DNA from: Alphaproteobacteria bacterium
GTDB lineage: Bacteria > Pseudomonadota > Alphaproteobacteria > Rickettsiales > UBA8987
Length of the DNA: 59,606 nucleotides
Direction of reading: 5' to 3'
Assembly: GCA_030429725.1 (NCBI GenBank)
Contig: JAUIEX010000004.1
Location: 1-59,606 of the forward strand
The notes under the pieces are model-generated. The model ran no database searches. It had not been told where the DNA came from and saw nothing but the letters and a program-made list of their open reading frames with translations. Positions 1-51,400 of this stretch are shown here, in pieces. Position 1 is the stretch's first letter. Each line of letters starts with the position of its first letter. The translations under genes were made by a program, and so were the position numbers.

Positions 1-2931
1 CTCACCCTGCGCGGCCTGAACGTCATCGCGGAAACTGCAAAAAACGATGATGAACCCTTCACCGAATCCCAGCTTGAAAAATATGGGCTGGTGAACTTAC
101 GCATCATCCAGTGGTTGAAGGTGACCGGCAAGCTGATCAAGCAGGAAGAATATAAGCACTCCTACCCCCATTGCTGGCGGACGGATACGCCGATTATCTA
201 TAAGGCGATGAGCAGCTGGTATGTGGCGGTGACGGAGATTAAAGACCGCATGGTGGAACTGAACCAGAATATCAACTGGATCCCGAACCATATTAAAGAC
301 GGGCAATTTGGCAAATGGCTGGAAAATGCCCGCGATTGGAGCATTTCGCGCAACCGCTTCTGGGGCTGCCCGATTCCCGTCTGGCGCACCGAATCCGGCA
401 AGGTGAAGGTGTTTGGCTCTATCAAAGAAATCTGTGATTTCTTTGATGTTGATAAAGAAAATAGCTCCCCCCTTGAGGGGGAGCAGACGAAGCAAGCTGC
501 GCAAGTAGCGAAGCAGAGTCGTGGGGGGGTGTCCGAGGAACAGATTGCCCCCCCACCGAGTCGCTCCGCTCCTCGACTCCCCCTCCAGGGGGGAGTTAGT
601 GAAGCGCGGTCAGGAGACCGCGCCAGCCCTGAGCATGCGGAAGCATCGCTCTATGAGAAAGACAGAAGTCTTTCTCGGGAGCAATCAAAAAAAGACATCC
701 TCCACAAACCCTTCATCGACTCGCTAACAAAAGTTGACCCGGAAACCGGGGAAACCTGGACACGCGTTTCCGATGTGTTTGATTGCTGGTTTGAATCCGG
801 CTCCATGCCTTTTGCGCAAATTCACTACCCGTTTTGTTTATCTAGCTCCCCCCTGGAGGGGGAGTCTGAATTTTCATCTGAGAATTCAGGTGGGGGTCAA
901 ATTTTTACGGAGAGTACCCCCCCCACCGAGTCGTCCGCTTTCGCTTCGCTACAGCGCGACTCCTCGACTCCCCCGCATTTTGATAGCGCCACGCACATGC
1001 GTGCTTCGGCGCATCAAGGGGGGAGTTATCCCCTTCCTCCCAACTTCCCGGCGGATTTCATTGTGGAATATGTGGGGCAAACACGCGGCTGGTTCTATAC
1101 GCTGATGGTGCTTTCCACCGCTTTGTTTGACCGTGAACCGTTCAAAAACTGCATCTGCCACGGCATCATTCTGGCCGAAGACGGCAAGAAGCTCTCCAAG
1201 AAGCTGAAAAACTACCCCGACCCGAACGAAATGTTCGACGCCTACGGCGCGGATGCCATGCGCTGGCGGATGATTAAAGAGCCGATCATGCAGGGCGGAA
1301 ATTTGCAGATCTCCAAGGACGGCAGCTGCATTCGTGATGTGGTGCGCCTTTCCATCAAGCCGATCTGGAATGCCTATCATTTCTTCAGCCTCTATGCCAA
1401 TGCGGACGGGGTGAAGGCCTATAATCTGCTGGAGATTGCCGAGGCGGAGGATGAGGACAGCGCCACGGGCGGCATCTGCTGTGGCGGGGCGCACGGTGCG
1501 GGTGAGCATCCGCTTTCTGATAATCTGCTGGATCGTTACATTCTGGCCAAGCTGGCAGGCGCGGTTCGCCAGATTAGCAAAGCGCTGGATGCTTATGATA
1601 CACCCACTGCCTGCAAGGCCGTCGATAGCTTCTTCGAGGTGCTGAATAACTGGTATATCCGCCGCTCCAGAGAGAGATTTTGGCGGAGCAATGTTGAATT
1701 GTCTCCGGGAAGTTCTACTGAACTTCCCATGAGACGGGGCTCAGGGCTGAGCTCGCCTACTGGCTCGCAGCTTAACTCTCAAAGTTCTGTCGGGGAGGCC
1801 AGCAGGCCGACCGAGCCGTCAGCGCGCGCAAGCGCCGCTCCATGTGATGTTCAGGAAGAACATCACGGGAGCATCGAAAAAGACCCCGACAAACAAGCCG
1901 CGTATGATACGCTCTATACCTGCCTGATTACCATGACAAAAGCCGCTTCGCCCTTGCTGCCATTTACGATGGAGGCGGTGTATCGGGGATTAACAGTGAG
2001 CAGTGAGCAGTTAGCAGAATCGTCATCGCGAGCGAGCGAAGCAAGCGACGCGATCTCTGGATTGCCACGTCGCAACGATGTTGCTCCTCGCAATGACGGA
2101 GAAAAACAGCATACTGCAAACTGCACGCTGCAAACCTCCTTCTCCGTTCACCTCCAGCCTTTCCCGGATGTTTCCGGCGTTTCGGCAGAAACGGAGCTGG
2201 TGCGCGCAATGGATATGGTGCAGGAGGTGTGCACGGCGGCGCTTGCCGTGCGTGACCGGGAGAATATCCGCATTCGCCAGCCGCTCTCCAACGTGATGGT
2301 GGTGGGAAAGGATACCAACCAATTAGGTCAGTTTGATGATTTGATCCGTGATGAGCTGAACGTGAAAGGGCTGGTACTTTCCCAAAGTCTGGATGAGATC
2401 GCCGATCTGCAACTGAAGCTGGATTTCAAACTGCTTGGTAAGCGGCTGGGCGGGGCAATGAAGAATGTGGCGGCTGCCGCCAAGCAGGGCAACTGGCAGA
2501 AACAGGAAGATGGCTCCGTGATGGTGGAAAATGAAGTGCTGCACGCCGATGAATTTGACCTGACACTGGCCATTAAAGACGGGGTGCTGCAGGATTATCA
2601 AAAGGCGGAGGCGCTGCCTTCCAACGGCGCGATTGTGGTGCTGGATACGCGCATTTCCGAGATGCTGCTGAAAGAAGGCATCGCACGTGATGTGGTGCGC
2701 ATGATCCAGCAGGCGCGGAAAGATGCCGATCTGCAGGTAACGGATCGCATCCGCCTTTCCGTGCAGGCGCCGGATGAGGTGAAGGCTGCCATTGAGGCAA
2801 ATCTGGATTATGTTAAAGCGCAGGTGCTGGCGGCCGATCTTGCCTTCACCTCCGCCAATGACCAGCCGCACACCGTGACCCAAAAACTGGGCGAAGCGGA
2901 GGTGACATTGGCCTTTGCGGCGGTGGCGTAA
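1..2931 (+). CDS. ileS: Isoleucine--tRNA ligase, type 2 (5'-partial), with four in-frame repeat insertions
   Basis: Frame open from base 1. Motifs HSYPHCWR, DWSISRNRFWGCPIP, DVFDCWFESG, GQTRGWFY, KLSKK (KMSKS equivalent) and a type-2 C-terminal domain. Non-IleRS segments at about 463-690, 844-1027, 1690-1875 and 1994-2135. Confidence 0.96.
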   Translation, partial: LTLRGLNVIAETAKNDDEPFTESQLEKYGLVNLRIIQWLKVTGKLIKQEEYKHSYPHCWRTDTPIIYKAMSSWYVAVTEIKDRMVELNQNINWIPNHIKDGQFGKWLENARDWSISRNRFWGCPIPVWRTESGKVKVFGSIKEICDFFDVDKENSSPLEGEQTKQAAQVAKQSRGGVSEEQIAPPPSRSAPRLPLQGGVSEARSGDRASPEHAEASLYEKDRSLSREQSKKDILHKPFIDSLTKVDPETGETWTRVSDVFDCWFESGSMPFAQIHYPFCLSSSPLEGESEFSSENSGGGQIFTESTPPTESSAFASLQRDSSTPPHFDSATHMRASAHQGGSYPLPPNFPADFIVEYVGQTRGWFYTLMVLSTALFDREPFKNCICHGIILAEDGKKLSKKLKNYPDPNEMFDAYGADAMRWRMIKEPIMQGGNLQISKDGSCIRDVVRLSIKPIWNAYHFFSLYANADGVKAYNLLEIAEAEDEDSATGGICCGGAHGAGEHPLSDNLLDRYILAKLAGAVRQISKALDAYDTPTACKAVDSFFEVLNNWYIRRSRERFWRSNVELSPGSSTELPMRRGSGLSSPTGSQLNSQSSVGEASRPTEPSARASAAPCDVQEEHHGSIEKDPDKQAAYDTLYTCLITMTKAASPLLPFTMEAVYRGLTVSSEQLAESSSRASEASDAISGLPRRNDVAPRNDGEKQHTANCTLQTSFSVHLQPFPDVSGVSAETELVRAMDMVQEVCTAALAVRDRENIRIRQPLSNVMVVGKDTNQLGQFDDLIRDELNVKGLVLSQSLDEIADLQLKLDFKLLGKRLGGAMKNVAAAAKQGNWQKQEDGSVMVENEVLHADEFDLTLAIKDGVLQDYQKAEALPSNGAIVVLDTRISEMLLKEGIARDVVRMIQQARKDADLQVTDRIRLSVQAPDEVKAAIEANLDYVKAQVLAADLAFTSANDQPHTVTQKLGEAEVTLAFAAVA
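463..597. repeat. Family A palindromic element, complete copy, in ileS
   Basis: AGCTCCCCCCTTGAGGGGGAGC...G-run...C-run...GACTCCCCCTCCAGGGGGGAGTT; closely similar to 49501-49647. Confidence 0.93.
601..682 (-). repeat. Family B three-hairpin element in ileS
   Basis: Hairpins GCGCGGTC/GACCGCGC, GAGCATGC/GCAT(C)GCTC and GAGAAAGAC/GTCTTTCTC. 623-682 matches the reverse complement of 50101-50160 at 54/60 nt. Confidence 0.92.
844..1027. repeat. Family A element in ileS with a 39-nt insert nested in its right terminal hairpin
   Basis: AGCTCCCCCCTGGAGGGGGAGTC...CCCCCCCCACCGAGTCG...GACTCCCCC[975-1013]TCAAGGGGGGAGTT. Confidence 0.9.
1706..1768 (+). repeat. Family B element (middle hairpin missing) in ileS
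   Basis: GGGAAGTTC-TACT-GAACTTCCC-ATGAGACG...GCTCAGGGCTGAGCTCGCCTACTGGCTCGC; similar to 50686-50757. Confidence 0.88.
1794..1869 (-). repeat. Family B element in ileS, inverted relative to 1706-1768
   Basis: 72/76 nt identical to the reverse complement of 50594-50669; encodes [25 protein letters not shown] in both genes. Confidence 0.95.
1994..2134. repeat. Heptamer-repeat arms enclosing a GTCAT(C/T)GCGAG...CTCGCAATGAC palindromic element (2021-2098) in ileS
   Basis: CAGTGAG CAGTGAG CAGTTAG on the left and CTGCAAA CTGCACG CTGCAAA on the right. Internal terminal inverted repeat CGTCATCGCGAG / CTCGCAATGACG matches at 11/12. Confidence 0.85.
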
Positions 2932-2940
2932 AAACCGCTT

Positions 2941-3924
2941 TTACCGCTCCCAGCCGCGGTTATCTTTGTTGAGGTTTTGATTCTTTTCAAGTTCGGAAAT
3001 GCTTTCAAGCGTTTTGTCCACAACCTTGTATGTACTAATAGGGTTAAGTGTAGTCTTCAAAGCAATGGCCGTTTCGGCGGGCACTGAAAACTGCTGCATG
3101 CCATAGGAAAAATCCAGTGTTTTACTATAGTCCTCATTACTGAGAGCGAAGAACACCTGATGAAAGAATTTATCGGCATAAAATGGTGCCAGATCCGGGC
3201 GTTCTTTTAACCAGGCTTGCATGCCCGGATCTTCTTTAAGTCTTTGTTTATCTTGTTGGGCAAACTCTTCTTTAGGAGTCACGCCACCATGTATGCCAAT
3301 CACATGAAACTGATCTTTAAGAGCCTCAAAAACACCCTTTGAATGAAAACGACCACATGTAAAAGTAGCGTTATTTCCACCTTCGGCAATGGTTTCCGCC
3401 ATCTTCTTATCTCGCAAAGAAAGATTTGTCGTATATTTTGCAAAATTCTCTCCATCATCCAGATTCACGTCTGCGGAGTGAAGACTGGCATCTTCACTTA
3501 CAGTGGGAATGTGAGAAAGAATAAACTGGCTATTATCAAACGTTCTTCCCGGAACAAGTAATTGATCTGGTGCACAGTTTCTAATATATTTAAATTGTGC
3601 ATCTGAAAGGCTTTGTGACGAATTGATGTTATTATTGCCCGTTTCAAAATAAAGATTGTTAATGCCATGCAGTTCCGCATCCCGCATCACGATATAGCTC
3701 ATCAGCCCGGCCGTGCGATCATCATGAAGTTCGTCCACCAGAATCAGGATGGGTTTATCTGGATCATCCGCCTTGGCTTTGGCCACTTCTTTGGTGAGGT
3801 AGAGATGAATATCGCGGGTTAGTTGTTCAATTGCTTCTTCATGCCCTGACTCGGCAAGTGTTTGTTCAAATTCCCGCGATATTGTTTCCAAATCTTTAAC
3901 AAGATGCTCTTCTAATTCCGGCAT
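2941..3924 (-). CDS. Hypothetical protein, AT-rich orphan with an effector-like C-terminal tail
   Basis: Long ORF. ATG 3924 preferred over 3957 because it has a GGAGAG RBS and the -10 overlaps 3957. Ends ...NLNKDNRGWER. Confidence 0.75.
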   Translation of the reverse strand: MPELEEHLVKDLETISREFEQTLAESGHEEAIEQLTRDIHLYLTKEVAKAKADDPDKPILILVDELHDDRTAGLMSYIVMRDAELHGINNLYFETGNNNINSSQSLSDAQFKYIRNCAPDQLLVPGRTFDNSQFILSHIPTVSEDASLHSADVNLDDGENFAKYTTNLSLRDKKMAETIAEGGNNATFTCGRFHSKGVFEALKDQFHVIGIHGGVTPKEEFAQQDKQRLKEDPGMQAWLKERPDLAPFYADKFFHQVFFALSNEDYSKTLDFSYGMQQFSVPAETAIALKTTLNPISTYKVVDKTLESISELEKNQNLNKDNRGWER

Positions 3925-3955
3925 TTTTCTCTCCAATAATCTTTTCTCTGCCCGC

Positions 3956-3987
3956 ATCCTAGCAACAAGAGTTTAATATTTTATTAA
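3956..3987 (-). promoter_or_regulatory. CtrA-type box plus -10
   Basis: TTAA-TAAAATA-TTAA, 11 nt, TAGGAT on the minus strand. Confidence 0.75.
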
Positions 3988-4000
3988 AACGCTGATAGGA

Positions 4001-4035
4001 CTTCCCTCTTCCCTCTTCCCTCTTCCCTCTTCCCT
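4001..4035. repeat. (CTTCCCT)5 heptamer tandem repeat
   Basis: Five perfect copies in the divergent intergenic region. Confidence 0.95.
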
Positions 4036-4058
4036 CATTTCTCTTTACTCTCCGGCCT

Positions 4059-4841
4059 ATGATCCGCCATCGCCATTTGCTCTATCAATCCCTTAAGCGG
4101 GAGATTCAGGCGCGCTATCGCGGTTCGGTGCTGGGCATTCTCTGGTCACTGGCAACACCGCTGCTGATGCTCACACTCTATACCTTCGTGTTTGCCATTG
4201 TGCTGAAGGCGCGCTGGGGCGTGGAATCGGTCGATAGCCACACGGGCGGGTTCGCCATTATGCTGTTTTCCGGGCTGATGCTGCATCAGTGCCTGTCGGA
4301 AATCCTCACCCGCAGCCCAACCCTCATCCTCAGCCACGCGCATTATGTCAAGAAGGTGGTCTATCCGCTGGAAATTCTCAGCCCGCAGATTGTGGGTGCG
4401 GCGTTCTTTCAGCTCTTCATCAGCCTGATTGTGTTGCTGGCCGGGCTGTGGGTAACGCAGGGTTCCATCCCGGTAACAACGCTCTGGCTGCCGGTGATCC
4501 TTCTGCCCTTCCTGCTGTTATGCCTTGGCCTAAGCTGGCTGCTGGCAGCGATGGGCACCTATCTGCGGGATACGGCACATCTCACCACCATGCTTTCGCC
4601 GGTGCTGCTATTCTTTAGCACCATTTTCTACCCGGCAGAGCGGCTTCCTGAGGCCATCCGCCCGCTTATCTACCTTAACCCCCTCACCCCGATGACGGAA
4701 CTCACCCGCGATATCCTTATCCTTGGCAACCCGCCATCCCTCCCCATGCTGACAATCTTTACCATCGCCAGCCTTGCCACCGGCATGCTGGGCTGGCTCT
4801 CCTTTAAAACCCTCAAAAATGGTTTTGCGGATATTTGTTAA
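4059..4841 (+). CDS. wzm: ABC-2 polysaccharide/O-antigen export permease (Wzm/RfbA-like)
   Basis: RYRGSVLGILW, KKVVYPLE and YLNPL motifs; multiple TM segments. Confidence 0.88.
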   Translation: MIRHRHLLYQSLKREIQARYRGSVLGILWSLATPLLMLTLYTFVFAIVLKARWGVESVDSHTGGFAIMLFSGLMLHQCLSEILTRSPTLILSHAHYVKKVVYPLEILSPQIVGAAFFQLFISLIVLLAGLWVTQGSIPVTTLWLPVILLPFLLLCLGLSWLLAAMGTYLRDTAHLTTMLSPVLLFFSTIFYPAERLPEAIRPLIYLNPLTPMTELTRDILILGNPPSLPMLTIFTIASLATGMLGWLSFKTLKNGFADIC

Positions 4842-5049
4842 CAACCTCTCAATAATCCGCTGCAGGCTGTGCTGTTTTCGCCACATCCCAGCGGGATGCC
4901 GACTACTGAGACTTTAAATAAAAAGAGTGGACGAAAAAGGGTTGCAATCTGTAAAGAAAGATGGTTGAACACTCTTCAGATATGTAGCAGGAGGTGTCAG
5001 TCTGCCTGCGCATAAGTTGATAACGATAACAACAATAAGGGGTTAGATA

Positions 5050-7608
5050 ATGACTGATTATATTTTTTCACAGGTAGTAGGGACGACAATTACTGCGTTC
5101 GATCCTGCTAACGATACACTTACTTTTGACGTGGTGAATAACACCGTCATCGCAGCCGATACATTGACGCTGACTGACAGTGGTTCCGATCTTGTCATCA
5201 CAACACCTCAGGGTTCCGTAACGCTGGGCGGCACGGAAAAGCTTGCTTTAACAACCACAAACCTGACTTTCATCGGTGGCACGACTTACACCATCGGCGA
5301 TGGCACAACGAACACTCAACTGGATGGTGCCGGTCAGGATTATACCGGCGGTAGTGCGCTGGGCGCTTTGGCAGATTATGCCGAAGGTCTGGGCGGTAAC
5401 GACTCCATCGATGGTGGTGCCGGTAACGATACGCTGAAAGGTCTGGGCGATAATGACTCTCTGGGTGGCGATGCTGGAAATGACTTCCTTAACGGTAATG
5501 CCGGTAACGACGTTGTAGACGGTGATGCCGGTAACGATACCGTTCGCGGTGGTGCCGGTAACGATACCGTTGACGGTGACGTTGCAGGTGGTGCTTTCAC
5601 TGACGATGGTGACGATCAGGTCTGGGGCGGTCAGGGCAATGACGTTCTGGCAACCGGTGGCGGTACGGACGAAGTTCGTGGCGGTGCCGGTAATGATACC
5701 GTTGTGCTTGCTTTCGCAGTGAATGAAGGTGCCGGTGCAGCTTCAGGCGCGAAAGACATTCAAACCGGTGAAGGCGACGACGTTGTTCTGCTGACGGACG
5801 GTGTGGCGGCGGATACCGCTTCCGTACTGCTGGGTGCAGGCGCTGATACGCTGGATGGTTCCGATGCAACCACAGCCTCTAACGCTCTGGTAACACAAGA
5901 AGGTGACGCGGATGATGATTACATCGGTGTGATCACGGCCAACGGTAATGCCGGTAACGACAGTCTGATTGGTGGTAACGGCGATGACGTTCTTCGCGGC
6001 GGTGCTGATAATGATGTTGTTAACGGTCACAGCGGTGCTGATACGCTTTCCGGTGACCTTGGTGACGATACGATCTTCCTGAGTGGTAATGGCGTTGCTG
6101 ATACGGCTGACTCCGTTGATGGTGGTGACGGTGATGATATCATCGCATTCCAAACGGCTGTTGACGGCGTTGGTGCAACGGCACAGGGTGACGACATCAT
6201 CAATGGTGGTGCGGGTAACGATACTATCTTCCTGACGGACGGTGATGCTGGTGATGATATCAGCGGTAGCGGTGGCGACGGTGACGACGTTATCGACGGT
6301 GGTGATGTTGAAACCACAACCAACACAGCTATTACCGGTGAAGGTGGCGCGGATGATATCTTCGCAGGTACCATGAACTTTAACGGTAATGCCGGTAACG
6401 ATACCGTTCGCGGTGGTGCTGGTGCGGATACACTGCGCGGCGGTGCGGATGATGATACCGTATCCGGTGGCGCAGGTGCTGACCGTCTGTTCGGTGATGC
6501 CGGTGACGATGATGTGACTGGTGCCGGTGGTGCCGACTCCATCGAAGGTGGTGCCGGTGACGACACGCTGAACGAAACCGGTGCGGGTGATAACGATACC
6601 GTGCTTGGTGGTGCCGGTAATGACAGCATCACGGCAGACGCTGCCGGTGTTGACAGCATCATCGGTGGTGAAGGTAACGATATCTTCGTACTGACCGGTG
6701 TGTTCGGTGATACGGACGTTCTGGACGGTGGTCTGGGTACGGATACGCTGGATTATGATGGCGTTGACGGTGCTCTGGGTACTGCCCTGACAACTGGCTT
6801 CGAGGTCATTGACCTTGGTGCGATCACCGGTGCGGGTACATTCACTGTGACCGACGATATGATCGTTACGGCTGAAAACCGCGCGATCACCATTCAAGGT
6901 GGTACAACCGACTTCGATCTGGATGTGTCTCAGGCTTCTGCACTGAACAGCACAACCGTAACACTAAGCACAACTGCTCGTGTCGACCTGCAAACCGACG
7001 CTTCTGCTGTAACAATTGCTGATGGTGTGAACGGTAGCGTTGTTGGTACGGCTGCTGCCGATACGATGATCGGCGGTACCGGTACGGACACCTTTGTTGG
7101 TGGCGACGGTGCTGACAGTCTGGTTGGTAATGCTGGCGCAGACACACTGACAGGTGGTCTGGGTGCGGATACCCTCTCAGGTGGTACGGGCGCTGATACG
7201 TTTGACTATCAAACTGTTGACACATCAACTGCTGCAACGATGGATAGCATTACCGACTTTGCTGCCGGTAGCGATATCATCGACTTTGATACGGCTGGCA
7301 ACGATACCGGTGATGACACCGCCATTGTTGCTGCGCTGGCGGATCAGTTTACTGCCGGTGGTTTCGCAACGGGTAACCTGGCAACATTGATTGCTGCGGA
7401 AGCTACTTTGGCTCTGGCGATTGCAGAGTTCCTGGCAGCAACCGGTTGGGATGACGATGATGTGGGTGCCTTCGAATATGGTGGCAATACCTACGTTGTT
7501 CACGCTGATGCGGATAACGCAGCAGGTAATATCGTTGAGCTGGCAGGCGTGACCGGTCTAACGACCATCACCGAAGTTGGTACAACTGACTCCTTCACCA
7601 TCGCATAA
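5050..7608 (+). CDS. RTX (hemolysin-type Ca-binding repeat) protein, possible S-layer protein
   Basis: Dozens of GGxGxDxL nonapeptides; acidic, Gly/Asp/Thr/Ala-rich; no signal peptide; strong GGT/AAC codon bias. Confidence 0.9.
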   Translation: MTDYIFSQVVGTTITAFDPANDTLTFDVVNNTVIAADTLTLTDSGSDLVITTPQGSVTLGGTEKLALTTTNLTFIGGTTYTIGDGTTNTQLDGAGQDYTGGSALGALADYAEGLGGNDSIDGGAGNDTLKGLGDNDSLGGDAGNDFLNGNAGNDVVDGDAGNDTVRGGAGNDTVDGDVAGGAFTDDGDDQVWGGQGNDVLATGGGTDEVRGGAGNDTVVLAFAVNEGAGAASGAKDIQTGEGDDVVLLTDGVAADTASVLLGAGADTLDGSDATTASNALVTQEGDADDDYIGVITANGNAGNDSLIGGNGDDVLRGGADNDVVNGHSGADTLSGDLGDDTIFLSGNGVADTADSVDGGDGDDIIAFQTAVDGVGATAQGDDIINGGAGNDTIFLTDGDAGDDISGSGGDGDDVIDGGDVETTTNTAITGEGGADDIFAGTMNFNGNAGNDTVRGGAGADTLRGGADDDTVSGGAGADRLFGDAGDDDVTGAGGADSIEGGAGDDTLNETGAGDNDTVLGGAGNDSITADAAGVDSIIGGEGNDIFVLTGVFGDTDVLDGGLGTDTLDYDGVDGALGTALTTGFEVIDLGAITGAGTFTVTDDMIVTAENRAITIQGGTTDFDLDVSQASALNSTTVTLSTTARVDLQTDASAVTIADGVNGSVVGTAAADTMIGGTGTDTFVGGDGADSLVGNAGADTLTGGLGADTLSGGTGADTFDYQTVDTSTAATMDSITDFAAGSDIIDFDTAGNDTGDDTAIVAALADQFTAGGFATGNLATLIAAEATLALAIAEFLAATGWDDDDVGAFEYGGNTYVVHADADNAAGNIVELAGVTGLTTITEVGTTDSFTIA

Positions 7609-7632
7609 TTGCGGTAGTGCACTAACCCCTTG

Positions 7633-7660
7633 GAAAGGCCGGGCTTTGCCCGGCCTTTCT
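7633..7660 (+). terminator. Intrinsic terminator after the RTX gene
   Basis: GAAAGGCCGGGC-TTT-GCCCGGCCTTTC. Confidence 0.85.
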
Positions 7661-7756
7661 GCGTTTTAGGCCACGTTTTTTGCCAATATTCACCGCAGAA
7701 AACCCGCCGGAATCTTTGCCCTTCCTTATTTCAGTTCATAGACATAGAATTCCTCT

Positions 7757-13285: not shown

Positions 13286-13460
13286 ACGCTGTTATTAAAT
13301 TAGGAAATATTTTGCCATGGTTCTCCCAATTGCAGCTTAAATCGTCGCTCGCTTCGTTAAGGCACTTGCCCGCAGAACCACTACGCGCTGCGTTCTTTTC
13401 CTTGCGAATCAACGATTTAAGCCAGCAACAAAATGTCTCCTAATTTAATAACAGTGGCTA
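13283..13460. mobile_element. MITE-like element (family F), 178 nt, TA-flanked
   Basis: Terminal inverted repeats TAGACGCTGTTATTAAATTAGGAAATATTTTG / CAAAATGTCTCCTAATTTAATAACAGTGGCTA; homologous to 32069-32160. Confidence 0.88.
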
Positions 13461-14036
13461 GCGGGACATGGCGGCACTGGCCTTCTGCGGTGGCGCGTTA
13501 TTATCCAGCCCCCTGAACCGCCCAACATTTTCCACATCCAGGCTTGTGTGATAAACAGCAAAAAGAGCATCCGCCAGTAATCCGGATTCCGGCACGCCAA
13601 GTTCCGGATCAAGCTCAAACCGCTCGTCATCGTGGTAGCGCTTCAGCTGCAGCCCCAGATAATGATCTTTCATTTCCGAGACCAGTTCGGGAGTTAACTC
13701 CCCTTTTTTACTTTGCAGCAGCACATCGTATAATTTTTCGGCAAATTGATCGCTGGCCGCTTTCAGCCCTTCCAGATATTCGATCTGAGCCTCAAGATTT
13801 TCCGGCATGTCTTCCTTCAGCCAGTCTATTTCATCATCAATGGCCTTGCTGAACCGAACGAGCTTGGCATGTGCTTTGGCCAGATGTCTCCGCTCCGCAT
13901 GGGCAATGTCCTGCCGATTGAGCGTCTTGGCAAACAACTCACTGGAAATCATTTTCAGCCCGTCATTCCAGAGTTTTTCCGGCGCCATGAGGTTTTGCAT
14001 CAATTCCGCGGCCAGTTTTTTATCTTCTTCCTGCAT
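13458..14036 (-). CDS. Hypothetical helical protein, orphan
   Basis: 192-aa ORF with GGAGG RBS; ends ...DNNAPPQKASAAMSR. Confidence 0.75.
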   Translation of the reverse strand: MQEEDKKLAAELMQNLMAPEKLWNDGLKMISSELFAKTLNRQDIAHAERRHLAKAHAKLVRFSKAIDDEIDWLKEDMPENLEAQIEYLEGLKAASDQFAEKLYDVLLQSKKGELTPELVSEMKDHYLGLQLKRYHDDERFELDPELGVPESGLLADALFAVYHTSLDVENVGRFRGLDNNAPPQKASAAMSR

Positions 14037-32068: not shown

Positions 32069-32160
32069 TAGACACTGTTATTAAAATAGGGGTTATTTTG
32101 TTACCGGCTTAAATCGTTGATTCGCAAGGAAAAATATCTCCTACTTTATAACAGTGTCTA
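32069..32160. mobile_element. MITE-like element (family F), internally deleted copy, upstream of gltA
   Basis: TAGACACTGTTAT...ATAACAGTGTCTA; shares GGCTTAAATCGTTGATTCGCAAGGAAAA with the reverse complement of 13283-13460. Confidence 0.85.
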
Positions 32161-34524: not shown

Positions 34525-35724
34525 CTATCCAATTCCCTGGCCAGTTGTTTTTGCCTGCTGTTGCTGTTGCGCGTCAATCTGCGCAGATGAAAGCCCCTCC
34601 AGAGACGCCGCCGAAAAATAGCTGGCAGCATCAATTGCGGCATACGGCATATTATCTGCCTCATTCTCCTGCGTTTCCCGCGTGGCGGCATCCGTTGCTT
34701 TTGCTGTGGTTGTTTGCATCATTTGGGCGATGTCACTCTCCAGCGCCGGCAATTGTGCCTGCACAAACTTCGCCGTATCAGTGGCATAGCCCACCTCGCG
34801 GCGCGTTCCATCCGCCATCACGGAAAAAACCTTATCATTCTGCTCCGGGTCAATCACCAGATATTGCGGCAGAACTGAAGGCACCACCATTCCCGCAGCG
34901 CTGGCCGCCTCACGATAAGCCGCCAATTTTCCGTTTAGAGCCACTACATTGGTAACGGTCTGTTCATAATATTGTTCATTGGTCATGCCACCGGTAACGG
35001 AGGCGATTTTCTGTTCCGCTTCTGCGCCGGTTCCCAGCCCAATCACCGCATCCCCGGCCAGTCCGGCCGCTTCCACGCGGGATGTTTCCTTTTCGGAATC
35101 GAAATTCTTATAAGTGTCCCAATTTTGGTACACGCTGTAAGCTGCCAAACCAATCGTGGCAACCCAACCAATCACCGGGATGGCACGAAAACCAACCTTG
35201 CCGCCTACCTTGGCCGCAACTTTGGCCGCAACTTTGGCGGCTTTGGCCTCTTGTGCCGCAACTTTGGCCGCAACTTTGGCCGCAGCTTTGGCCTCTTGTG
35301 CTGCAAGCCTGGCTACATCATCTGCCAAATTCCCTGCCGCTTTCAGGGATTGATCCAGCGCTTTTTTGGCAACGGGGTTGTTCAATATGTTGACGGCTTT
35401 GGCCAATTCTGTTGTTTTTTGTGTACCAACCACCACGCTCTGAAGCGCTTTCTGCACTTCCGCCACCCGCGCGGCAACAGCCGCTTGCGAGGCATTGGTT
35501 GCCAGCCCAAGTGTTTTATAGGCGTTATTCAGTAAATTTCCATCAATCAGGCTCATGGCGGCTCTCATTTCCGCCGCCTGTGCGGCGCTGACCGCACCGG
35601 CAATTTTCAGCTGCGTAGCATGGTGAGCAACCTTTTCCGCCATCTGGGCATACGTCGCACCCGGCGCTATATCCAGCGTTTTAAATGCTGCTGCCATTTT
35701 TTTTGCGATCTCTACTTCACTCAT
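34525..35724 (-). CDS. Hypothetical 399-aa protein with two J-domain-like starts, AAKV repeats and a TM segment
   Basis: AFKTLDIAPGATYAQM and AYKTLGLATNASQAAV; AIPVIGWVATIGLAAY hydrophobic segment. Confidence 0.8.
   Translation of the reverse strand: MSEVEIAKKMAAAFKTLDIAPGATYAQMAEKVAHHATQLKIAGAVSAAQAAEMRAAMSLIDGNLLNNAYKTLGLATNASQAAVAARVAEVQKALQSVVVGTQKTTELAKAVNILNNPVAKKALDQSLKAAGNLADDVARLAAQEAKAAAKVAAKVAAQEAKAAKVAAKVAAKVGGKVGFRAIPVIGWVATIGLAAYSVYQNWDTYKNFDSEKETSRVEAAGLAGDAVIGLGTGAEAEQKIASVTGGMTNEQYYEQTVTNVVALNGKLAAYREAASAAGMVVPSVLPQYLVIDPEQNDKVFSVMADGTRREVGYATDTAKFVQAQLPALESDIAQMMQTTTAKATDAATRETQENEADNMPYAAIDAASYFSAASLEGLSSAQIDAQQQQQAKTTGQGIG
35210..35305. repeat. Coding tandem repeat (12-nt TTGGCCGCAACT units) giving AAKV/AAQEAK repeats
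   Basis: Directly visible in the sequence. Confidence 0.85.
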
Positions 35725-43624: not shown

Positions 43625-43636
43625 ACTAGTGATATG

Positions 43637-44386: not shown

Positions 44387-44502
44387 GACGCCCTCCAAAA
44401 GTTAATTTTTTAACTTTGTCAGTCTATCAGACACAAATCGGTATTTCCACCCCGTATGAAAACAGAGCACTAAAAACAGAACTAAAACACACCGGCCTGT
44501 GC

Positions 44503-44688
44503 CTAATTTGTAGAGAAAAACAACACCAGCGTAAACACGGCCAGCGCCTGAAACACAACGCGCATCACCATCAGCTTGTTGCTGAACTTCTGGTTCACCT
44601 TGCCGCCGGTGGCCATCAGCACCACGCCGGCAATCACCATCAGCAAGGCTAATGCCATAAAAATTCCGATAATCACCATGGGTGCCAT
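44503..44688 (-). CDS. Twin-transmembrane small protein (HIG1-like)
   Basis: GG..N.KFSNKLM.MRV.FQA pattern; GGAGG RBS; typical neighbour of etfB. Confidence 0.82.
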   Translation of the reverse strand: MAPMVIIGIFMALALLMVIAGVVLMATGGKVNQKFSNKLMVMRVVFQALAVFTLVLFFSTN

Positions 44689-44811
44689 ACGCCACCTCCC
44701 CTGCTTTCTTCTTAGCGCGGCCTGCGGCATAACTAAACCTAAAAATTCAAGATACTGCTTGCTTTTTCCGGTTTTTTAGCGTAGTCAGGCCGTCCCGCAA
44801 TGAAGCGGTAA

Positions 44812-44940
44812 ATCACACACGGGATGCGCTTAAGCCGCCCTTGAAGAATTTCTTCTTCGGTCGTTTCGGCACTCGGTGGTGGGTTGATAATGAGGGCAAG
44901 CCTCTGTTTAATCTCATCTTTTCCCGTGGAGGCAGAACCG
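44812..44940 (+). ncRNA. rpsB 5' leader (t44-like S2 autoregulatory structure)
   Basis: CACACACGGG...CCCGTGGAGGC..AACC pairing pattern immediately upstream of rpsB. Confidence 0.6.
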
Positions 44941-44954
44941 AAAAGGAGAAAACG

Positions 44955-45839
44955 ATGTCTGCAATTCCTAAATTTACGATGAAAGACCTGCTGGATGCCG
45001 GCGTGCATTACGGCCATAAAACCATGCGCTGGAACCCCGCCATGGCGCCTTATATTTACGGCGAAAAAAATAATATTCACATCATCAACCTGCAAACCAC
45101 CGTGCCCTTGATGCACCGTGCGCTGAAAGCCATCCGCGAAGTGGGTGAGAAAAATGGCCGCATCCTGTTTGTGGGCACGAAGCGTCAGGCTTCCGATATT
45201 GTTGCGGAAACGGCAAAAAGCTGTGGCCAGTATTATGTCAATCACCGTTGGTTGGGTGGCATGTTGACCAACTGGAACACCGTTTCTAAATCCATCAAAA
45301 CATTGTCGGATTATCAGGACTTGCTGAAAAATGACGATGTTGCTTTAAACAAAAAAGAACGCCTGCAGATTCAGCGTAAAATCGATAAGCTGGAGGCCAC
45401 ATTGGGTGGAATTAAGAACATGGCCGGTACGCCGGATCTGATTTTTATCATTGATACCAACAAAGAACATATTGCCGTGAAAGAAGCCAATCAGCTTGGT
45501 ATTCCGGTGGTGGCCGTGCTGGATACGAATTCCAGCCCCGAAGGTGTTGATCTGCCGATCCCCGGCAATGATGATGCCATGCGCTCCATCCAGCTTTATT
45601 GCGATCTGGCTGCTCAGGCTGTTCTTGGCGGCATGCAAACGGCATTGGGTGGTGGCAAAGCCGCCAATGACGATGCCGTTGCTGCGCAGGAAAAAGCCGC
45701 AGCAGAAGAAGCCGCCAAGGCGGAAGAAGCTGCTAAAGATGATGGCGTTAAAGTAGAAACGAAGAAAACCCGCACCGTGAAAAAAGATGCGGAAAAAGCA
45801 CAGGACGCTAAAGATAATAAAGAAGCTTCCGCCGCTTAA
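44955..45839 (+). CDS. rpsB: 30S ribosomal protein S2
   Basis: [21 protein letters not shown] and PGNDDA. Confidence 0.97.
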
Positions 45840-45932
45840 ACCTCAACCGTAAGAAGCAGGGGTTGATCTTGCATCACTCCTGCTTATCTCACTTAAACAA
45901 TTGATAGATTAAAATAAAGACAGGAGAAACCC

Positions 45933-46835
45933 ATGGCAATTTCAGCAAGTGATGTAAAACGCCTTCGCGAAGAAACCGGCGCAGGCATGATGGATTGTAA
46001 AAAAGCACTCGAAGAAAATAACGGTGATTATGAAAACTCTAAAGACTGGCTGCGTGAAAAAGGCATCGCCGGTGCGGCTAAGAAAGCCAGCCGTGTGGCG
46101 GCCGAAGGGCTGGTGGGCGTGAAGGTGAAGGGCAATCAGGGTGTGCTGGTTGAACTGAACTCTGAAACCGATTTCGTCGCTAAAAATGAGCAATTCCAAA
46201 AGCTGCTGGACAGCGTGCTGGATCAGGCGCTGGAAGTGAATGGTGATTATGATGCGCTGAAGGAAAAAACAGCGGGTCAGATCACCGATGCCGTTGCCAC
46301 CATCCGTGAAAACATGTCCCTGCGTCGCAGCACGCAAGTTGCTGTGAATAAGGGCATTATCGGTGCTTATATCCATAATCAGCAAGCCGCCGGTCTGGGT
46401 CAGATCGGTGTGCTGGTGGCGCTGGAATCCGATGCGCCGGCCGAGAAGCTGGAGCCGGTTGCCAAGCAGCTGGCCATGCATGTGGCCGCCGCCAAGCCAA
46501 CGGCTCTTTCACGCGATGAGGTGGATTCCTCCGAGCTGGATCGTGAGCGTAAAATTTTCAGTGAGCAGGCCAAAGCCTCCGGCAAGCCGGAAGAAATCAT
46601 CGCCAAGATGGTTGAAGGCCGTATCCGCAAATATTACGAAGAAGTGGTGCTTCCGGAGCAGACTTTTGTGATTGACGGTAAAACCAAAATTTCCGACTTT
46701 ATTGAGGCTGCCGCCAAGGAAGCCGGTGCTGCCATCACCCTCAAAGCATTTGTCCAATACACGCTGGGCGAAGGCATTGAGAAGGAAGAAACCGATTTCG
46801 CCGCTGAGGTTCAAGCGGCTGCCTCCGCAGCTTAA
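45933..46835 (+). CDS. tsf: Elongation factor Ts
   Basis: LREETGAGMMDCKKAL, NSETDFVAKN and GEGIEK. Confidence 0.97.
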   Translation: MAISASDVKRLREETGAGMMDCKKALEENNGDYENSKDWLREKGIAGAAKKASRVAAEGLVGVKVKGNQGVLVELNSETDFVAKNEQFQKLLDSVLDQALEVNGDYDALKEKTAGQITDAVATIRENMSLRRSTQVAVNKGIIGAYIHNQQAAGLGQIGVLVALESDAPAEKLEPVAKQLAMHVAAAKPTALSRDEVDSSELDRERKIFSEQAKASGKPEEIIAKMVEGRIRKYYEEVVLPEQTFVIDGKTKISDFIEAAAKEAGAAITLKAFVQYTLGEGIEKEETDFAAEVQAAASAA

Positions 46836-46881
46836 AACCTCTCTTTTATCGGGCTGCGGGTCGGTCAGATAAGGCACTAAG

Positions 46882-46916
46882 AAAACCCGCCAACTTCACT
46901 GTTGGTGGGTTTTTTT
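46882..46916 (+). terminator. Intrinsic terminator after tsf
   Basis: AAAACCCGCCAAC...GTTGGTGGGTTTTTT. Confidence 0.8.
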
Positions 46917-47820
46917 ATTTCTGCACCGGCTTTTTCTGGACGCGGCCATCCCGCATATAGGAAAGCAGGGCGGCGCCCAGAATCATCCCGCCGCCGACCA
47001 ATGTCCAGAACTGAATGATTTCGTCAAACAACATTGCCGCCAGCAGGGATGTAAACAGCAGGTTCAGAAAGCTGAAGGGCAACACGGTGGTGATCGCCGC
47101 GCCGGTGAAAGCCTTCGTCACCGCATATTGCTGTAACGCCACTGCTGCCCCAAGCCCAAGCAAAAACGGCAGATGTGCCAATGCCACTTCCTGCCAGAAA
47201 TAGAGCGCGCAGGGCAAGGTGGCCAACGCCGTCAGCCACAGCATCACAAATGTGATCTGCGCCGGATGTTCCGTTTGCATCATCTTGCGAATCAAAATAC
47301 CACAATTAGCAAAGCAGAAGCTGGCGCCCAGCATCAGCATCACGCCCAGCCCAAACTGCCCGCTGCCCGGCTGGGCAATCACAATCACTCCGATGCTTCC
47401 CAGCAGCAGCGCCACATAATTCTGCCAATGCGGGCGCTCGCCCAGCCGGATAATAGCCAGCACGGAAACCATCAGCGGTGTAACAAATGCCAGCGCCGCC
47501 AGCATCGGCAGCGGCACAATTGCCATGACCAGAAAGAACAGGGTGAAACCAATCGTTTCCAGCAGGGAGCGCACCATAAAACGCCGCTTCTGCTGCCCAA
47601 GGCTAAACCGCAAAGGCCAGCTGCGCCGGCCGAGCAAATGCCGCACACAGGCCAGTGCGCCATAGGCCAGCAAACCGAAAATATTGTAGAAAAACACCAT
47701 CTGCATGGCGTGAAAATCCGGCCGCAACTGCCGGCCAAAGCCATTGACCAGCGCTGCACCCAGCATGGCCAGCACCATCCAGCCAATGGCCATACGCGCT
47801 GAAATCTGTGGGTTCATCAT
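46915..47820 (-). CDS. DMT/EamA family transporter
   Basis: About 10 TM segments with two EamA-like repeats (LGE, FDE). Confidence 0.88.
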   Translation of the reverse strand: MMNPQISARMAIGWMVLAMLGAALVNGFGRQLRPDFHAMQMVFFYNIFGLLAYGALACVRHLLGRRSWPLRFSLGQQKRRFMVRSLLETIGFTLFFLVMAIVPLPMLAALAFVTPLMVSVLAIIRLGERPHWQNYVALLLGSIGVIVIAQPGSGQFGLGVMLMLGASFCFANCGILIRKMMQTEHPAQITFVMLWLTALATLPCALYFWQEVALAHLPFLLGLGAAVALQQYAVTKAFTGAAITTVLPFSFLNLLFTSLLAAMLFDEIIQFWTLVGGGMILGAALLSYMRDGRVQKKPVQK

Positions 47821-47876
47821 GGGGGGTTTAACTGTCTTTTGGATAGCTTTTTAACCACAACAATCCGCCTTCAAAC

Positions 47877-48497
47877 TCAGCCATCCAGACCGTCACCCGC
47901 CAGATAGTTGACCAGACGGAAGCGAATATCCTGCGCCATCTCTTTTAAGATGCGGTTATTCGTATCCTGCTCGGCGGCGTAGGTGGCAAAATCGGAAGTG
48001 TCCGCCGCATCAAAACTGCCGATGATCTGGCTGCGGTCGCGCCACACCACCTCCCCATTGCTGATATCCACCAGCGCAAGGCTTGCATCAACCGTCAGGC
48101 TGAAACGCGTCACTTCCCGATCCTGCTGAATATTCAGCTCCTGCCGCTGGCGGGAAAGATCAATCCGCAATTCATGCGTTTTCGCTTCACCCTGTTTGAT
48201 CAGCAGATTTTCCAGCTCCGTCTTCAGCAACTGCCCGTCCCGCCCGGCGGGAATATTGGCCACACGCACTTTGGCCAACGCCGCCTGCACCGGCACGCTG
48301 ATGGCAGATTGCTCACTGTAAAGCGGGGTAAAGCCGCAGGAAGTGAGCAAGATACACAAGAACAGCGCCATAAAGAGAGGATATAGCTCCCCCCCATCGC
48401 ATCGGCGTGCTTCGCATGCGCCTCTGCGACTCCCCCACAGGTGGGGAGTTGAGCTAAACTCTGAACTCTGAACTCTGAACTCCGGACTCTGTCTCAT
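47877..48497 (-). CDS. lptE: LPS assembly lipoprotein LptE with a repeat insertion in the signal-peptide n-region
   Basis: Lipobox [13 protein letters not shown] overlaps the leuS TGA (ATGA); conserved leuS-lptE order. Confidence 0.85.
48385..48490. repeat. Family A right half + GAGCTAAA + (CTGAACT)n heptamers inside the lptE 5' end
   Basis: Same composite as 49576-49681. Confidence 0.88.
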
Positions 48498-51400
48498 GCT
48501 GCCACCACGTTAATAATTTTTCCCGGCACCACAATCACCTTGCGCACCTGTTTACCTTCAATGAACTTTAACACATTCTCATGAGAAAGTGCCTGTTTTT
48601 CTGCCTCTTCCTTATCCGTGCCCACCGCCATTTCCAGCGTGCCGCGCATTTTGCCGTTCACCTGCAGCGCCACCGTGACCGTCTCCTCCACCAGCAAATC
48701 AGGCAGGGCTTGCGGCCATGGCTGCCGGCAGAGCATTTCCGTGTGCCCCAATTGCTGCCAGCATTCCTCGGTGAGGTGCGGAATCATCGGGTGCAGGAGG
48801 GTGATGGCCACTTCTACGCCTTCGCGGAAAACGGCCTTGGAAGCACGCTGCTCCCGTGGCATTTTTTCCAGCGCATTGGTCAGCTCCCGCACCTTGGCCA
48901 CGGCTTTGTTATAACCGAAACGGTGCAGTTCCTGCGTCACATCGCGGATGGTGCGGTGAATCAGCTGATGCATTTCCAGCAAGCCACCGGCCAACCCCTG
49001 CAGCCAGTGTTTGCCATCCATCATGCCCAGCGGCTCCACCTCTTCCACCAACTTCCACAGCCGATCGAGATATTTGCGCGTGCCGGCCACGCCGGCATCG
49101 CTCCATTCCAGATCGCGCTCCGGCGGGGAGTCGGAGAGCATGAATAAACGCGCTGTATCGGCGCCGAAACGACCCATAATATCCTTCGGATTGACCGTGT
49201 TCAGCTTGGATTTTGACATTTTGATGGATGGGCCAGCTTTCACCGGTGCGCCCGCTTTTGTTTGGTAGCTGCCATCTCTCTGGCGGATGACCTCTTCCGG
49301 ATAAAGCCACTGGCCTGCCTCATTCTGATACGTCTCATGGCACACCATGCCCTGCGTCAACAGGGCTTTGAAAGGTTCTTTCACGTCCGTATAGCCGCAA
49401 CGGTTCAGCGCGCGGGTAAAGAACCGCGCATACAGCAGATGCAGCACCGCATGCTCAATCCCGCCAATATACTGATCCACTGGCATATAGGGTGAGGAGT
49501 AGCTCCCCCCTTGAGGGGGAGCGGACGAAGCCTCTTTTGAGGCTGAGTCGTGGGGGGGCGTTCCATCCCGCGATTGCCCCCCCACCGCATCATCTCCTAG
49601 CGCTTCGCGCTGAGGAGATTCTGCGACTCCCCCTCCAGGGGGGAGTTGAGCTAAATCCTGAACTCTGAACTCTGAACTCTGCCCCGCAAATGCCAGAAAA
49701 TACCAGCTGGATTCAAAGAACGTATCAAATGTGTCCGTCTCACGCGTGGCTTGTTTGCCGCATTGCGGGCAATCCACATCTTTCCATGTGGGATGCAGCA
49801 ATAGCGGGTTGCCCGTTTGCGTGCCGTCAATCACCACATCTTTGGGAAGGGTGACGGGCAATTGATCCTTCGGCACGGGCACTGCGCCACAATCCGCGCA
49901 GTGGATCACCGGAATCGGACAGCCCCAGTAACGCTGGCGGGAAATGCCCCAGTCCCGCAAACGGTAATTGGTTTGCCGTTTCCCGACACCAAGCGCCTCA
50001 AGCTTTTCAATGGCTGCTTGTTTCGCTTCCGAAACATTCATGCCATTCATAAAATCGGAGTTCACCAACACCCCATCCCCGGTGTAGGGCTCCTTTAACT
50101 GCTCCCGAGAAAGCCTACTGGCTTTCTCATGGAGCGCTGCTTCCGCAGGCTCAGGGCTGGGCTCGCCTGCTGGCTCGCTAACCTCTTCTCTTTTCTCTTC
50201 ACTCTTCACTCTTCGCTCTTCCGGCGCCACCACCTGTGTAATCGGCAGGCCATATTTGCTGGCGAAGGCAAAGTCGCGCTCATCATGCGCCGGGCAGGCA
50301 AAAATTGCGCCCGTGCCATAGCCCATCAGCACAAAATTGGCCACATAAACCGGCAGGGTGATGTTTGCATCCAGCGGATGCCGCACCCGCAAGCCTGTAT
50401 CAAAACCCTTCTTTTCAGCCTTATCAATCGCTTCCGTGGCGGTGCCCAGCGCAGCGCATTCAGCAATAAAATCCTGCAACTCTTTATTATCCTGCGCTAA
50501 TGCTTCCGCAAGCGGGTGCCCGGCGGCAATGCCAATGAAGGACGCCCCGAACAATGTTTCCGGCCGCGTGGTATAGACTTCGATATGATTATCCCCGTGA
50601 TGTTCTTCCTGAACATCACATGGGATGGCGCTTGCGCGCGCTGACGGCTCGGTCGGCCTACTGGCCTCCTTGGTATGATTATCTACGGGAAATTCTCCTG
50701 AATTTCCCATGAGACGATCCTTCGGATGCTCATGGCTGTGCTCGCCTACTGGCTTGCCTGCACCCTCACCTGAAAATGCTTCAGCATTTTCAGACTCTCC
50801 CATCAAGGGAGAGTGCTTATTACTCCCCACCTGTGGGGGAGTCGAGGAGTGGTCAGCGTTAGCGCCACGACTCGGTGGGGGGGAGCAAGCTGAACTCTCT
50901 ATCTGGAATCGCACCAAGGCACCTTCGGATTTGCCGATCCAGTTTTCCTGCATATGGCGCACACGCTCCGGCCATTCTTCCAGCTCACTTAAGCCCTGCA
51001 ACAGCGCTTCGGAAAAATCGGAAATACGCAAAAACCATTGCTGCAGCTTGCGCCGCTCCACAGGCGCGCCGCTGCGCCAGCCTTTACCGTCAATCACCTG
51101 TTCATTGGCCAGCACGGTCTGATCCACCGGATCCCAGTTCACTTCCGCCTCTTTGCGATAGGCCAGATCATTCGCCCAGAAATCCAGAAACATGGCCTGT
51201 TCCTGTGCATAATAATCCGGCAGGCAGGTGGCCAGCTCGCGCCGCCAGTCATAGGACAGGCCGATGGCTTTCAGTTCACCGCGCATTTCCGCGATATTGC
51301 CCAGCGTCCAGTCTTCCGGATGCAGGGGGTTATCCTGATTTTCCGGACGGGAATTATGGGCGATGGTGGCATTTTCCGCCGGCAGACCGAAGGCATCCCA

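Follow-up and report, generated by a model that had tools for sequence, protein, structure and literature searches.

Rickettsia palindromic elements (RPEs) are palindromes of 100-150 bp that lie between genes and also, in frame, within many housekeeping genes, pheT among them (PMC10969869, PMC1779305). In-frame palindromic repeats have so far come mainly from Rickettsia, and the accessible passages of these accounts name neither a mobilising gene nor a mobilising enzyme. Here we analyse such repeats, at higher density, in a related lineage. The window, which is the whole stretch of DNA that was analysed (59,606 nt, contig JAUIEX010000004.1, numbered C65 by us), belongs to a 1.74-Mb assembly of an uncultured alphaproteobacterium (GCA_030429725.1; 74 contigs, ~51% GC, 98% complete), and its genes for the isoleucyl- and leucyl-tRNA synthetases (ileS and leuS; IleRS and LeuRS) contain several in-frame inserts composed of hairpin modules, which we call family A and modules B, C and D.

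By analogy, the closest known system is that of the RPEs. As in RPEs, the repeats are interspersed palindromes of ~100-150 bp (135-157 nt for family A, 70-95 nt for modules B, C and D), found both between genes and in frame in unrelated housekeeping genes, a synthetase included. Unlike RPEs, they consist of GC-rich hairpins made of C-runs and G-runs in a genome of 51% GC, they are modular and stacked, and one family shares arms with a larger element that encodes a DUF559 domain. Besides the size and GC content given above, the genome is marked by the presence of carB, thiC and ubiD.

The explanation that we favour, and consider rather probable, is that these are RPE-like modular hairpin selfish elements which reside in many genes and are translated there as surface loops, and that family A derives from a DUF559 element. 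According to this proposal, hairpin elements would have spread into numerous genes of this bacterium, and copies would persist in essential genes only if they measure a multiple of three nucleotides, leave the host frame without stops and lie at a tolerant surface loop; under these three conditions the inserts would be translated as unstructured loops. Family A would be a cargo-less derivative, similar to a miniature inverted-repeat transposable element (MITE), of a larger element of relatives in which two inverted arms of ~65 nt enclose a DUF559 domain (Vsr-like, PD-(D/E)XK) read in the host frame. The putative endonuclease may drive, or may once have driven, insertion at preferred sites in IleRS, ValRS, CarB, DnaE and repair enzymes, and could mobilise cargo-less copies in trans, while the bias towards synthetases might come from site preference or hot spots together with the many permissive loops of large enzymes. 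Both the activity of the endonuclease and this route of mobility are suggested by sequence.

Anatomy of the inserts in ileS and leuS

The two genes, their inserts and the half element beside leuS are as follows (coordinates of the window, strand, feature).

1-2931, +: ileS, eukaryote-like IleRS, running off the 5' end of the contig; frame open throughout
463-699, +: ileS insert 1 (79 aa), a family A element and then module B
464-596, +: family A element of insert 1 (left arm 464-529, 18-nt loop, right arm 548-596)
604-693, +: module B of insert 1, three hairpins
~838-1050, +: ileS insert 2 (~60 aa net), with a repeated part at 843-1030 that is a composite of arm-type hairpin modules
1693-1872, +: ileS insert 3 (60 aa), module C (1698-1770) and module D (1790-1872)
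2020-2139, +: ileS insert 4 (40 aa), low-copy, with one 42-nt match in the genome and short palindromes
48389-48482, +: half element in the leuS-lptE spacer, a family A right arm with a tail of CTGAACT repeats
48494-51664, -: leuS, complete, open frame, 1056 aa (829-841+ aa in eight relatives)
49500-49681, +: leuS insert at aa 664-722, consisting of a family A element (49500-49650), antisense to the gene, and a tail
50094-50178, -: leuS insert at aa 487-523, module B, directly after the editing domain
50583-50896, unstranded: leuS insert at aa 258-355, a stack directly before the editing domain, with module D (50591-50669, -), module C (50678-50757, +) and two arm-type modules (50758-50883)

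An alignment with six to nine orthologues of the same family and order shows four inserts in IleRS, which total ~240-250 aa, and an alignment with eight orthologues shows three in LeuRS, plus 9 aa near aa 106, for a total of ~190-200 aa. These figures, and the open frames, agree with an earlier note made from the letters of this DNA alone, which had counted four in-frame inserts in ileS (~245 aa) and three in leuS (~200 aa). None of the eight relatives has these inserts in LeuRS, although two bear short ones of their own at the first site. The Pfam editing domain of LeuRS (aa 356-495) is flanked by the first two inserts. The note was also right that the inserts of both genes draw on shared repeat families, since common hairpin modules are found in the two, that copies occur in both orientations relative to translation of the host gene, and that the other genes of the window are free of them. 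The copy that it had placed inside lptE is instead intergenic: the likely start of lptE is Met43 (48371), with a lipobox next to it and the Pfam LptE domain at aa 75-195 of the open reading frame (ORF), and the half element lies upstream of this start, hence in the spacer and not in the gene.

Alignment of the copies resolves family A into five hairpin parts. The first is a terminal hairpin (GCTCCCCCC-loop-GGGGGAGC), the second and the fourth are hairpins of variable sequence on either side of the centre, the third is a central G7...C7 hairpin with an 18-nt loop, and the fifth is again a terminal hairpin (ACTCCCCC-loop-GGGGGGAGT). The two arms so formed are inverted repeats of each other at 43 of 66 bases. 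Modules B, C and D all form hairpins as well; B and D are one family with three hairpins, in which many stem positions are changed on both sides yet remain paired (15 copies), and C has two. The modules are stacked, A with B and C with D in ileS, and D with C and two arm-type modules in leuS. With the exception of the insert at 2020-2139, all inserts of ileS and leuS are multi-copy in the genome (depth 4-16 by blastn), and the modules of ileS insert 2 are found also in DnaE (two copies), ValRS and Mfd. Single-linkage clustering merged 114 repeat regions into one mosaic group, and the modules were instead defined by alignment. The family A copies of leuS and ubiD are 90% identical, central loop included, which suggests that cargo-less copies have spread recently between unrelated genes.

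There are 72 copies of the hairpin CTCCCCC-N3-5-GGGGGAG in the genome and none of a reversed control pattern, which excludes an origin by chance. No other genome among the 41 searched has as many, the next being G011 with 55 and G033 with 33 (relatives are cited by our own genome numbers), and together with the module stacks this bears out the description of the repeats as stacked and unusually dense. Rfam gave no match over the whole window at the gathering threshold, none at E <= 1 in 48300-51700, and none in six related loci.

The 5' end of the contig may hide a further insert. About 443 N-terminal residues of IleRS are missing from all contigs of the assembly, and a search among proteins for a full-length IleRS of the same species returned a closest match of 80%. 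The first codons of the window encode 'LTLRGLNV' of IleRS and the DUF559 element of G011, described below, stops just before 'LSLKGLNV'; because the end of that element coincides with the first codons of the window, the contig break probably fell, judging from these sequences, inside a fifth ileS insert. G001 has a hairpin insert at the spot of its IleRS that matches position 1 of the window.

At 1579-1665, IleRS shows a further small expansion ('...SATGGICCGGAHGAGEHPLSD') that has no repeat copies, and a shorter one is present at the same site in G001. In modules B and D (e.g. 604-693 and 1790-1872), a T stands opposite a G at the base of hairpin 3 in 15 of 15 copies, an observation worth recording because Vsr-type enzymes recognise T:G mismatches.

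Copies elsewhere in the genome and reading of the inserts

Comparison of the genome with itself yielded ~200 repeat regions, which gave 122 loci after neighbours had been merged and contig ends set aside. With ORFs taken from our own greedy calls, which are not gene predictions, 42 of these loci lie well inside ORFs of at least 300 aa, 22 in smaller ORFs or at edges, and 58 outside ORFs. Four unrelated cases were left out before the enrichment test (paralogous motifs on C3 and at C69:21991 and C74:34614, and an internal tandem at C38:38907), and the remaining 38 insertion loci in large ORFs are spread over 21 ORFs, all of them open. The hosts, identified with NCBIfam and Pfam, comprise synthetases (IleRS, LeuRS, CysRS, and ValRS with six loci), replication and repair proteins (DnaE, RecG, Mfd, UvrB, PcrA/UvrD, LigA and a UDG-family protein) and a varied remainder (CarB, ClpB, UbiD, ThiC, NadE, a FadB-like protein, an acyl-CoA dehydrogenase, a YbbP-like permease and a SpoU methylase).

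Class Ia synthetases hold 13 of the 38 loci, where 0.49 would be expected from their length (P ~1e-15). The fair test of this bias uses the loci outside the window: of these 32, seven are in class Ia synthetases, where 0.25 would be expected (P ~5e-9), six of the seven being in valS alone. Of the synthetases that the earlier note had singled out for checking, ValRS and CysRS carry copies and MetRS has none; ArgRS is likewise free of them. The hairpin counted above, a marker that does not depend on the repeat sequences, agrees with this distribution. Of its 72 copies, 37 are in ORFs of at least 300 aa (DnaE 6, CarB 5, ValRS 4, LigA, UbiD and IleRS three each, LeuRS 2, and others), 14 in ORFs of 80-299 aa and 21 outside ORFs. 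Since the marker is present in DnaE, CarB, LigA, UbiD and other proteins, the repeats are not confined to synthetases, and the bias that had been proposed stands as an enrichment and not as a specificity, DnaE and CarB having more hairpins than any synthetase. Nor are they confined to coding sequence: 58 of the 122 loci are outside ORFs, and 21 of the 72 hairpins fall outside ORFs or at the edges of ORFs. At G000:C66:25000-34100, in this genome, family A copies form a cluster in and between small ORFs; a prepilin-type N-terminal methylation motif is present in one of the ORFs, and the cluster adjoins a 1252-aa NHL-repeat-like protein that itself has a family A copy.

From their reading frames, the inserts appear to be translated as part of the host protein. 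Every family A copy has stops in two or three of the six frames, and the frame of the host is always open. Fuzzy matching of family A gave 16 rows, six of which had unreliable ends and were dropped (C24, two overlapping on C35 and three on C74). Among the copies with reliable ends, the five located in named genes measure 135, 135, 141, 147 and 147 nt, all multiples of three, whereas the five outside named genes measure 155 nt (four) and 157 nt, none a multiple of three. This length filter bears on the possibility that the inserts are removed before the mature protein is made, as introns, as inteins or by translational bypass, leaving enzymes of normal size. Removal would not require that genic copies be stop-free multiples of three when copies elsewhere are not, which disfavours removal at the RNA level; moreover, no Rfam intron family matched, and a Pfam scan of IleRS and LeuRS here, and of the IleRS of G001 and G007, showed no Hint or intein domain and gave synthetase domains only, with DUF559 in addition in the relatives. 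Nothing direct speaks for removal, and only the location in essential genes recalls inteins and introns, so that we regard it as very improbable. An AlphaFold2 model of LeuRS places the three inserts within coil segments (258-358, 486-521 and 651-737) of predicted local distance difference test (pLDDT) score below 50, in a model that is weak overall (mean pLDDT 61.5, nine-sequence alignment) and in which low scores of the inserts are partly built in, because the inserts are gaps of the alignment.

A fragmented metagenome bin of 74 contigs, with contigs that break at repeats, also raises the question of whether the assembly has misplaced repeats into genes. Contigs assembled separately from a public run cover leuS and span every junction between host and insert with 0 differences; the two public DNA runs used (X1 and X2) have identical contig sets and are likely a single data set, from which the assembly itself may derive, so that they show agreement of a second assembler on the junctions and do not count as independent support. 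Contig joints such as that from 50623 to 50728 have short sides, and we take them as other copies of the repeats rather than as insert-free alleles. Stronger support for the inserts being real comes from the relatives, in whose independent assemblies, one of them a single-contig chromosome of 2.1 Mb, the same architecture is seen. Given this, and given that the frames stay open, an assembly artefact is extremely improbable.

Arm homology between family A and a DUF559 element of relatives

The IleRS gene of G011, a genome of the same family as this one, contains an element whose left arm consists of a terminal hairpin, a variable hairpin and GAGTCGTGGGGGG, whose middle is ~310 nt of DUF559 (PF04480) coding sequence in the IleRS frame, with no start codon of its own seen, and whose right arm repeats the left in inverted orientation at 59 of 68 bases. 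PF04480 / REase_MTES_1575 is the sole domain between the arms. The left arm is identical to that of the ileS family A element at 58 of 67 bases, and the DUF559 stretch sits exactly at the position of the 18-nt loop of family A; the layout in G006 is alike. The match of the left arms and the position of DUF559 therefore suggest that family A is the G011 element with its endonuclease stretch replaced by the 18-nt loop. In five relatives (G011, G006, G020, G013 and G001) the terminal hairpin of family A (23-30 nt, 92-97% identity) adjoins DUF559, the longest match to a family A end being 70 nt at 74%, in G006. The oversized IleRS proteins of G001 (1483 aa) and G007 (1379 aa) each contain a complete in-frame PF04480 domain (E = 3.5e-36 and 4.7e-39), and at the DNA level CTCCCC...GGGGAG hairpins stand on both sides of it.

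A 25-nt end of family A was found in 27 stretches, exclusively from metagenome-assembled genomes (MAGs) of uncultured Alphaproteobacteria or of Rickettsiales type, and is intergenic in those of 31-35% GC. On four MAG contigs of that GC range (L077, L090, L094 and L095), the GC-rich left arm of family A is intergenic and is followed by an AT-rich stretch of ~200-250 nt that has no DUF559 frame; the right arm follows once.

Among the 40 relatives there are 26 strong PF04480 matches over 18 genomes. PF04480 was present in 19 of the 41 genomes searched. In the count of co-occurrence with the hairpin, 12 relatives have both, none has the hairpin only, seven have DUF559 but not this exact hairpin, and 21 are devoid of both (Fisher P = 9e-6, in a test that treats related genomes as if independent). 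Seventeen of the 26 copies are in frame in larger proteins and the remaining nine in ORFs of 115-379 aa. The in-frame hosts are class Ia synthetases (10), CarB (2), and DnaE, RecJ, RecO, an Smr-domain protein and an oxidoreductase (1 each), a set that overlaps with the proteins in which this genome has cargo-less copies.

Individual sites are shared as well. In ValRS, the site after 'VSPQI' is filled in five of eight genomes, with DUF559 in G007 and G002 and with cargo-less inserts in this genome (family A), G019 and G011, and it is empty in G003, G020 and G008. In IleRS (numbering of G003), site 838 is taken by DUF559 in G007 and, in this genome, by insert 3, and site 650 has cargo-less inserts in this genome, G007 and G021, with one at 640 in G001; the position of ileS insert 2 is also filled in G001, G007 and G021. 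At site ~297, DUF559 is present in five genomes of four GTDB families and the others are empty. The site in G011 (~440) was taken from a direct reading of the element, MAFFT having drawn its DUF559 under the others. The suggestion of hot-spot or targeted insertion gains from this, the same IleRS and ValRS sites being filled in several genera.

Ten in-frame copies of the domain were compared, and all have retained the motifs ELDGxQH and RFWNNE; the domain of G011 matches a structure described as 'endonuclease-like protein' (PDB 3hrl_A, E = 1.4e-29). In the part available of a survey of the PD-(D/E)XK superfamily, VSR, DUF559 and DUF2726 are grouped together, with functions given as Vsr mismatch repair and group I intron homing endonuclease (PMC3424549), and the accessible text of another report places Vsr-like homing endonucleases within replication and repair genes, as 'fractured genes' (PMC2677866). 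In-frame fusions of DUF559 with many proteins are present in a collection of 5.8 billion protein sequences; IleRS makes up 5 of the 120 matches listed, and the partners among these matches also include DnaE-type polymerases, SufD, HrpA, PriA-/RecG-like helicases, IGPS, cysteine desulfurase and EPSP synthase. Six of the fusions were inspected and have Pro/Gly-rich flanking peptides of the 'PLP..GEG' type, as such hairpins would encode. Conversely, PF04480 is present in 18 of the 120 IleRS proteins most similar to that of this genome. Many IleRS proteins of this lineage (P0142, P0167, P0189 and others) have a GNAT domain (PF13302/PF00583) in frame, some of them with DUF559 in addition. A search of the literature outside most subscription journals found no paper in which DUF559 is described as an insert of synthetases or as flanked by inverted repeats.

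Several points weigh against our explanation, besides the limits of the LeuRS model and of the public-run contigs given above. For the right arms of family A, agreement with the G011 arm is weak (41 of 65 and 48 of 71 bases). Modules B, C and D lack a cargo-bearing relative, and in 4 of the 40 relatives they gave no more than partial matches. PF04480 has no match in this genome, so that the proposed driver is not seen here, a negative limited by the missing 5' half of ileS, which covers the DUF559 region of 7 of the 8 DUF559-bearing IleRS genes examined. No consistent target-site duplication or target motif was found, 'TA' preceding ~5 of 11 aligned family A copies. Finally, DUF559 copies are 41-72% identical and their hosts 48-75%; because the domain is as diverged as its hosts, old vertical residence with losses would explain the shared sites as well as homing does.

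Some of these points would suit a different mover, that is, RPE- or MITE-like hairpins moved by another enzyme (one of the Y1 transposases of this genome, like the REP-associated tyrosine transposases (RAYTs), or host recombination and repair), with DUF559 a mere passenger. The genome has two Y1 genes of IS200/IS605 type (PF01797), one of them multi-copy, it lacks DUF559, and modules B, C and D have no link to that domain; Y1 transposases, furthermore, act on hairpins in single-stranded DNA. The hairpins beside both Y1 genes, however, are unlike modules A to D, of which no copy is found there, all 12 of the hairpin-bearing relatives have DUF559, and in at least G011 and G006 DUF559 lies exactly between the arms. 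Repetitive extragenic palindromes (REPs) and their RAYTs are, moreover, extragenic systems, which these elements are not. We consider a different mover unlikely.

The conserved motifs of DUF559 and its host-like divergence could also be read as a sign that the inserts benefit the host, as lineage-specific peptides or domains appended to synthetases and repair enzymes and kept for a function in protein or mRNA. Some sites are indeed filled across several families, and IleRS of this lineage has GNAT domains too (NCBIfam 'ileS_w_GNAT' matched). A beneficial peptide is hard to reconcile with the presence of the same sequences between genes, where the 21 hairpins outside ORFs lie, or with the use of both orientations, because of which the inserts encode unrelated peptides. 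The hosts are unrelated enzymes, presence among relatives is sporadic, and the inserts are predicted to be coil; benefit to the host thus seems to us improbable, more so than a different mover.

Selfish hairpin elements, with family A as the derivative of a DUF559 element, remain the explanation that we prefer. Beyond it, and tentatively, since we would put its chances somewhat below even, hairpin-bounded DUF559 may form a distinct class of selfish element that resides in essential genes as neither intron nor intein and is translated through as a tolerated domain at the protein surface, whose cargo-less remnants are these palindromes and possibly RPEs, and whose preferred homes are class Ia synthetases, CarB and DnaE.

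Comparison with other mobile elements and other repeats of the window

The elements are not REP/RAYT systems, inteins or introns, although they share traits with each and with MITEs. Like MITEs, they have terminal inverted arms (at the identities given above for the G011 element and for family A) and comprise short, cargo-less, multi-copy derivatives that share ends with a larger element. Unlike in MITEs, the larger partner carries no transposase but a Vsr-like nuclease domain without its own start codon, and the likeness fails on this third point; nor is a target-site duplication clearly seen, and many copies appear from sequence to be translated in frame. With homing endonuclease genes, in inteins and introns and in 'fractured genes' as far as the available part of the report describes them (PMC2677866), they have in common a Vsr/PD-(D/E)XK fold inside essential genes of replication, repair and synthetase type, sporadic presence at the same site in different taxa, and endonuclease-free remnants. 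They differ in that there is no Hint domain, intron or gene fracture, the element being bounded by hairpins and read through, and in that the assembled part of this genome has no endonuclease coding sequence detectable as PF04480.

REP and REPIN sequences are also short GC-rich hairpins, often in inverted pairs, with structure kept by compensatory change. REPs are extragenic, unlike the repeats described here, more than half of whose marker hairpins (37 of 72) are inside ORFs of at least 300 aa, and in contrast to REPIN-RAYT systems both PF01797 genes are flanked by other hairpins, one of them being an ordinary multi-copy insertion sequence (IS). The IleRS proteins with GNAT (NCBIfam NF040702, 'ileS_w_GNAT') resemble those with DUF559 in having a foreign in-frame domain in IleRS within the same broad lineage; the inserted domain is a different one.

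One repeat family can thus be traced, arm for arm, to a Vsr-like endonuclease element in the frame of a host enzyme, and there is a good chance that these elements expose the autonomous partner of 'protein-coding palindromes'. If the endonuclease is the driver, this would offer a testable mechanism for the origin of the repeats and for their clustering in synthetase, replication and repair genes, and a third lifestyle of homing-type endonucleases besides introns and inteins. It also touches annotation, since fusions named 'isoleucyl-tRNA synthetase/very-short-patch-repair endonuclease' exist in public databases.

The remaining repeats of the window are of other kinds.

4001-4056: intergenic tandem of the heptamer CTTCCCT
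13286-13465, unstranded: intergenic, near-perfect, AT-rich palindrome of 180 nt (dG -63 kcal/mol), with a second, partial copy at 32069-32133
59495-59606, unstranded: terminus of an IS200/IS605-type element (Y1 transposase), multi-copy and outside the hairpin families

The heptamer tandem is loosely chained to the same superfamily as the hairpin modules, and similar purine/pyrimidine-rich tandems are found elsewhere in the genome (e.g. G000:C60:9523-9637). The palindrome belongs to a separate family of 17 copies (12 intergenic, 4 partial, 1 inside an ORF) and is probably the family E or F of the earlier note. The IS200/IS605-type element (also at G000:C63:61957-62501) has PF01797 in a 149-aa ORF, and both of its ends recur at no fewer than nine contig ends; contig breaks at these ends account in part for the fragmentation of the assembly.

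Two periodic sequences lie within ORFs. At 5050-7608 (+), an 852-aa protein gives nine matches to the RTX (repeats-in-toxin) calcium-binding nonapeptide (PF00353, E = 9.5e-56) and a weak match to the C-terminus of serralysin, the nonapeptide repeats explaining the 27-nt periodicity seen there. A tandem with a period of 12 nt (GCCGCAACTTTG-like) is located at 35183-35326, within an ORF at 34525-35724 (-).

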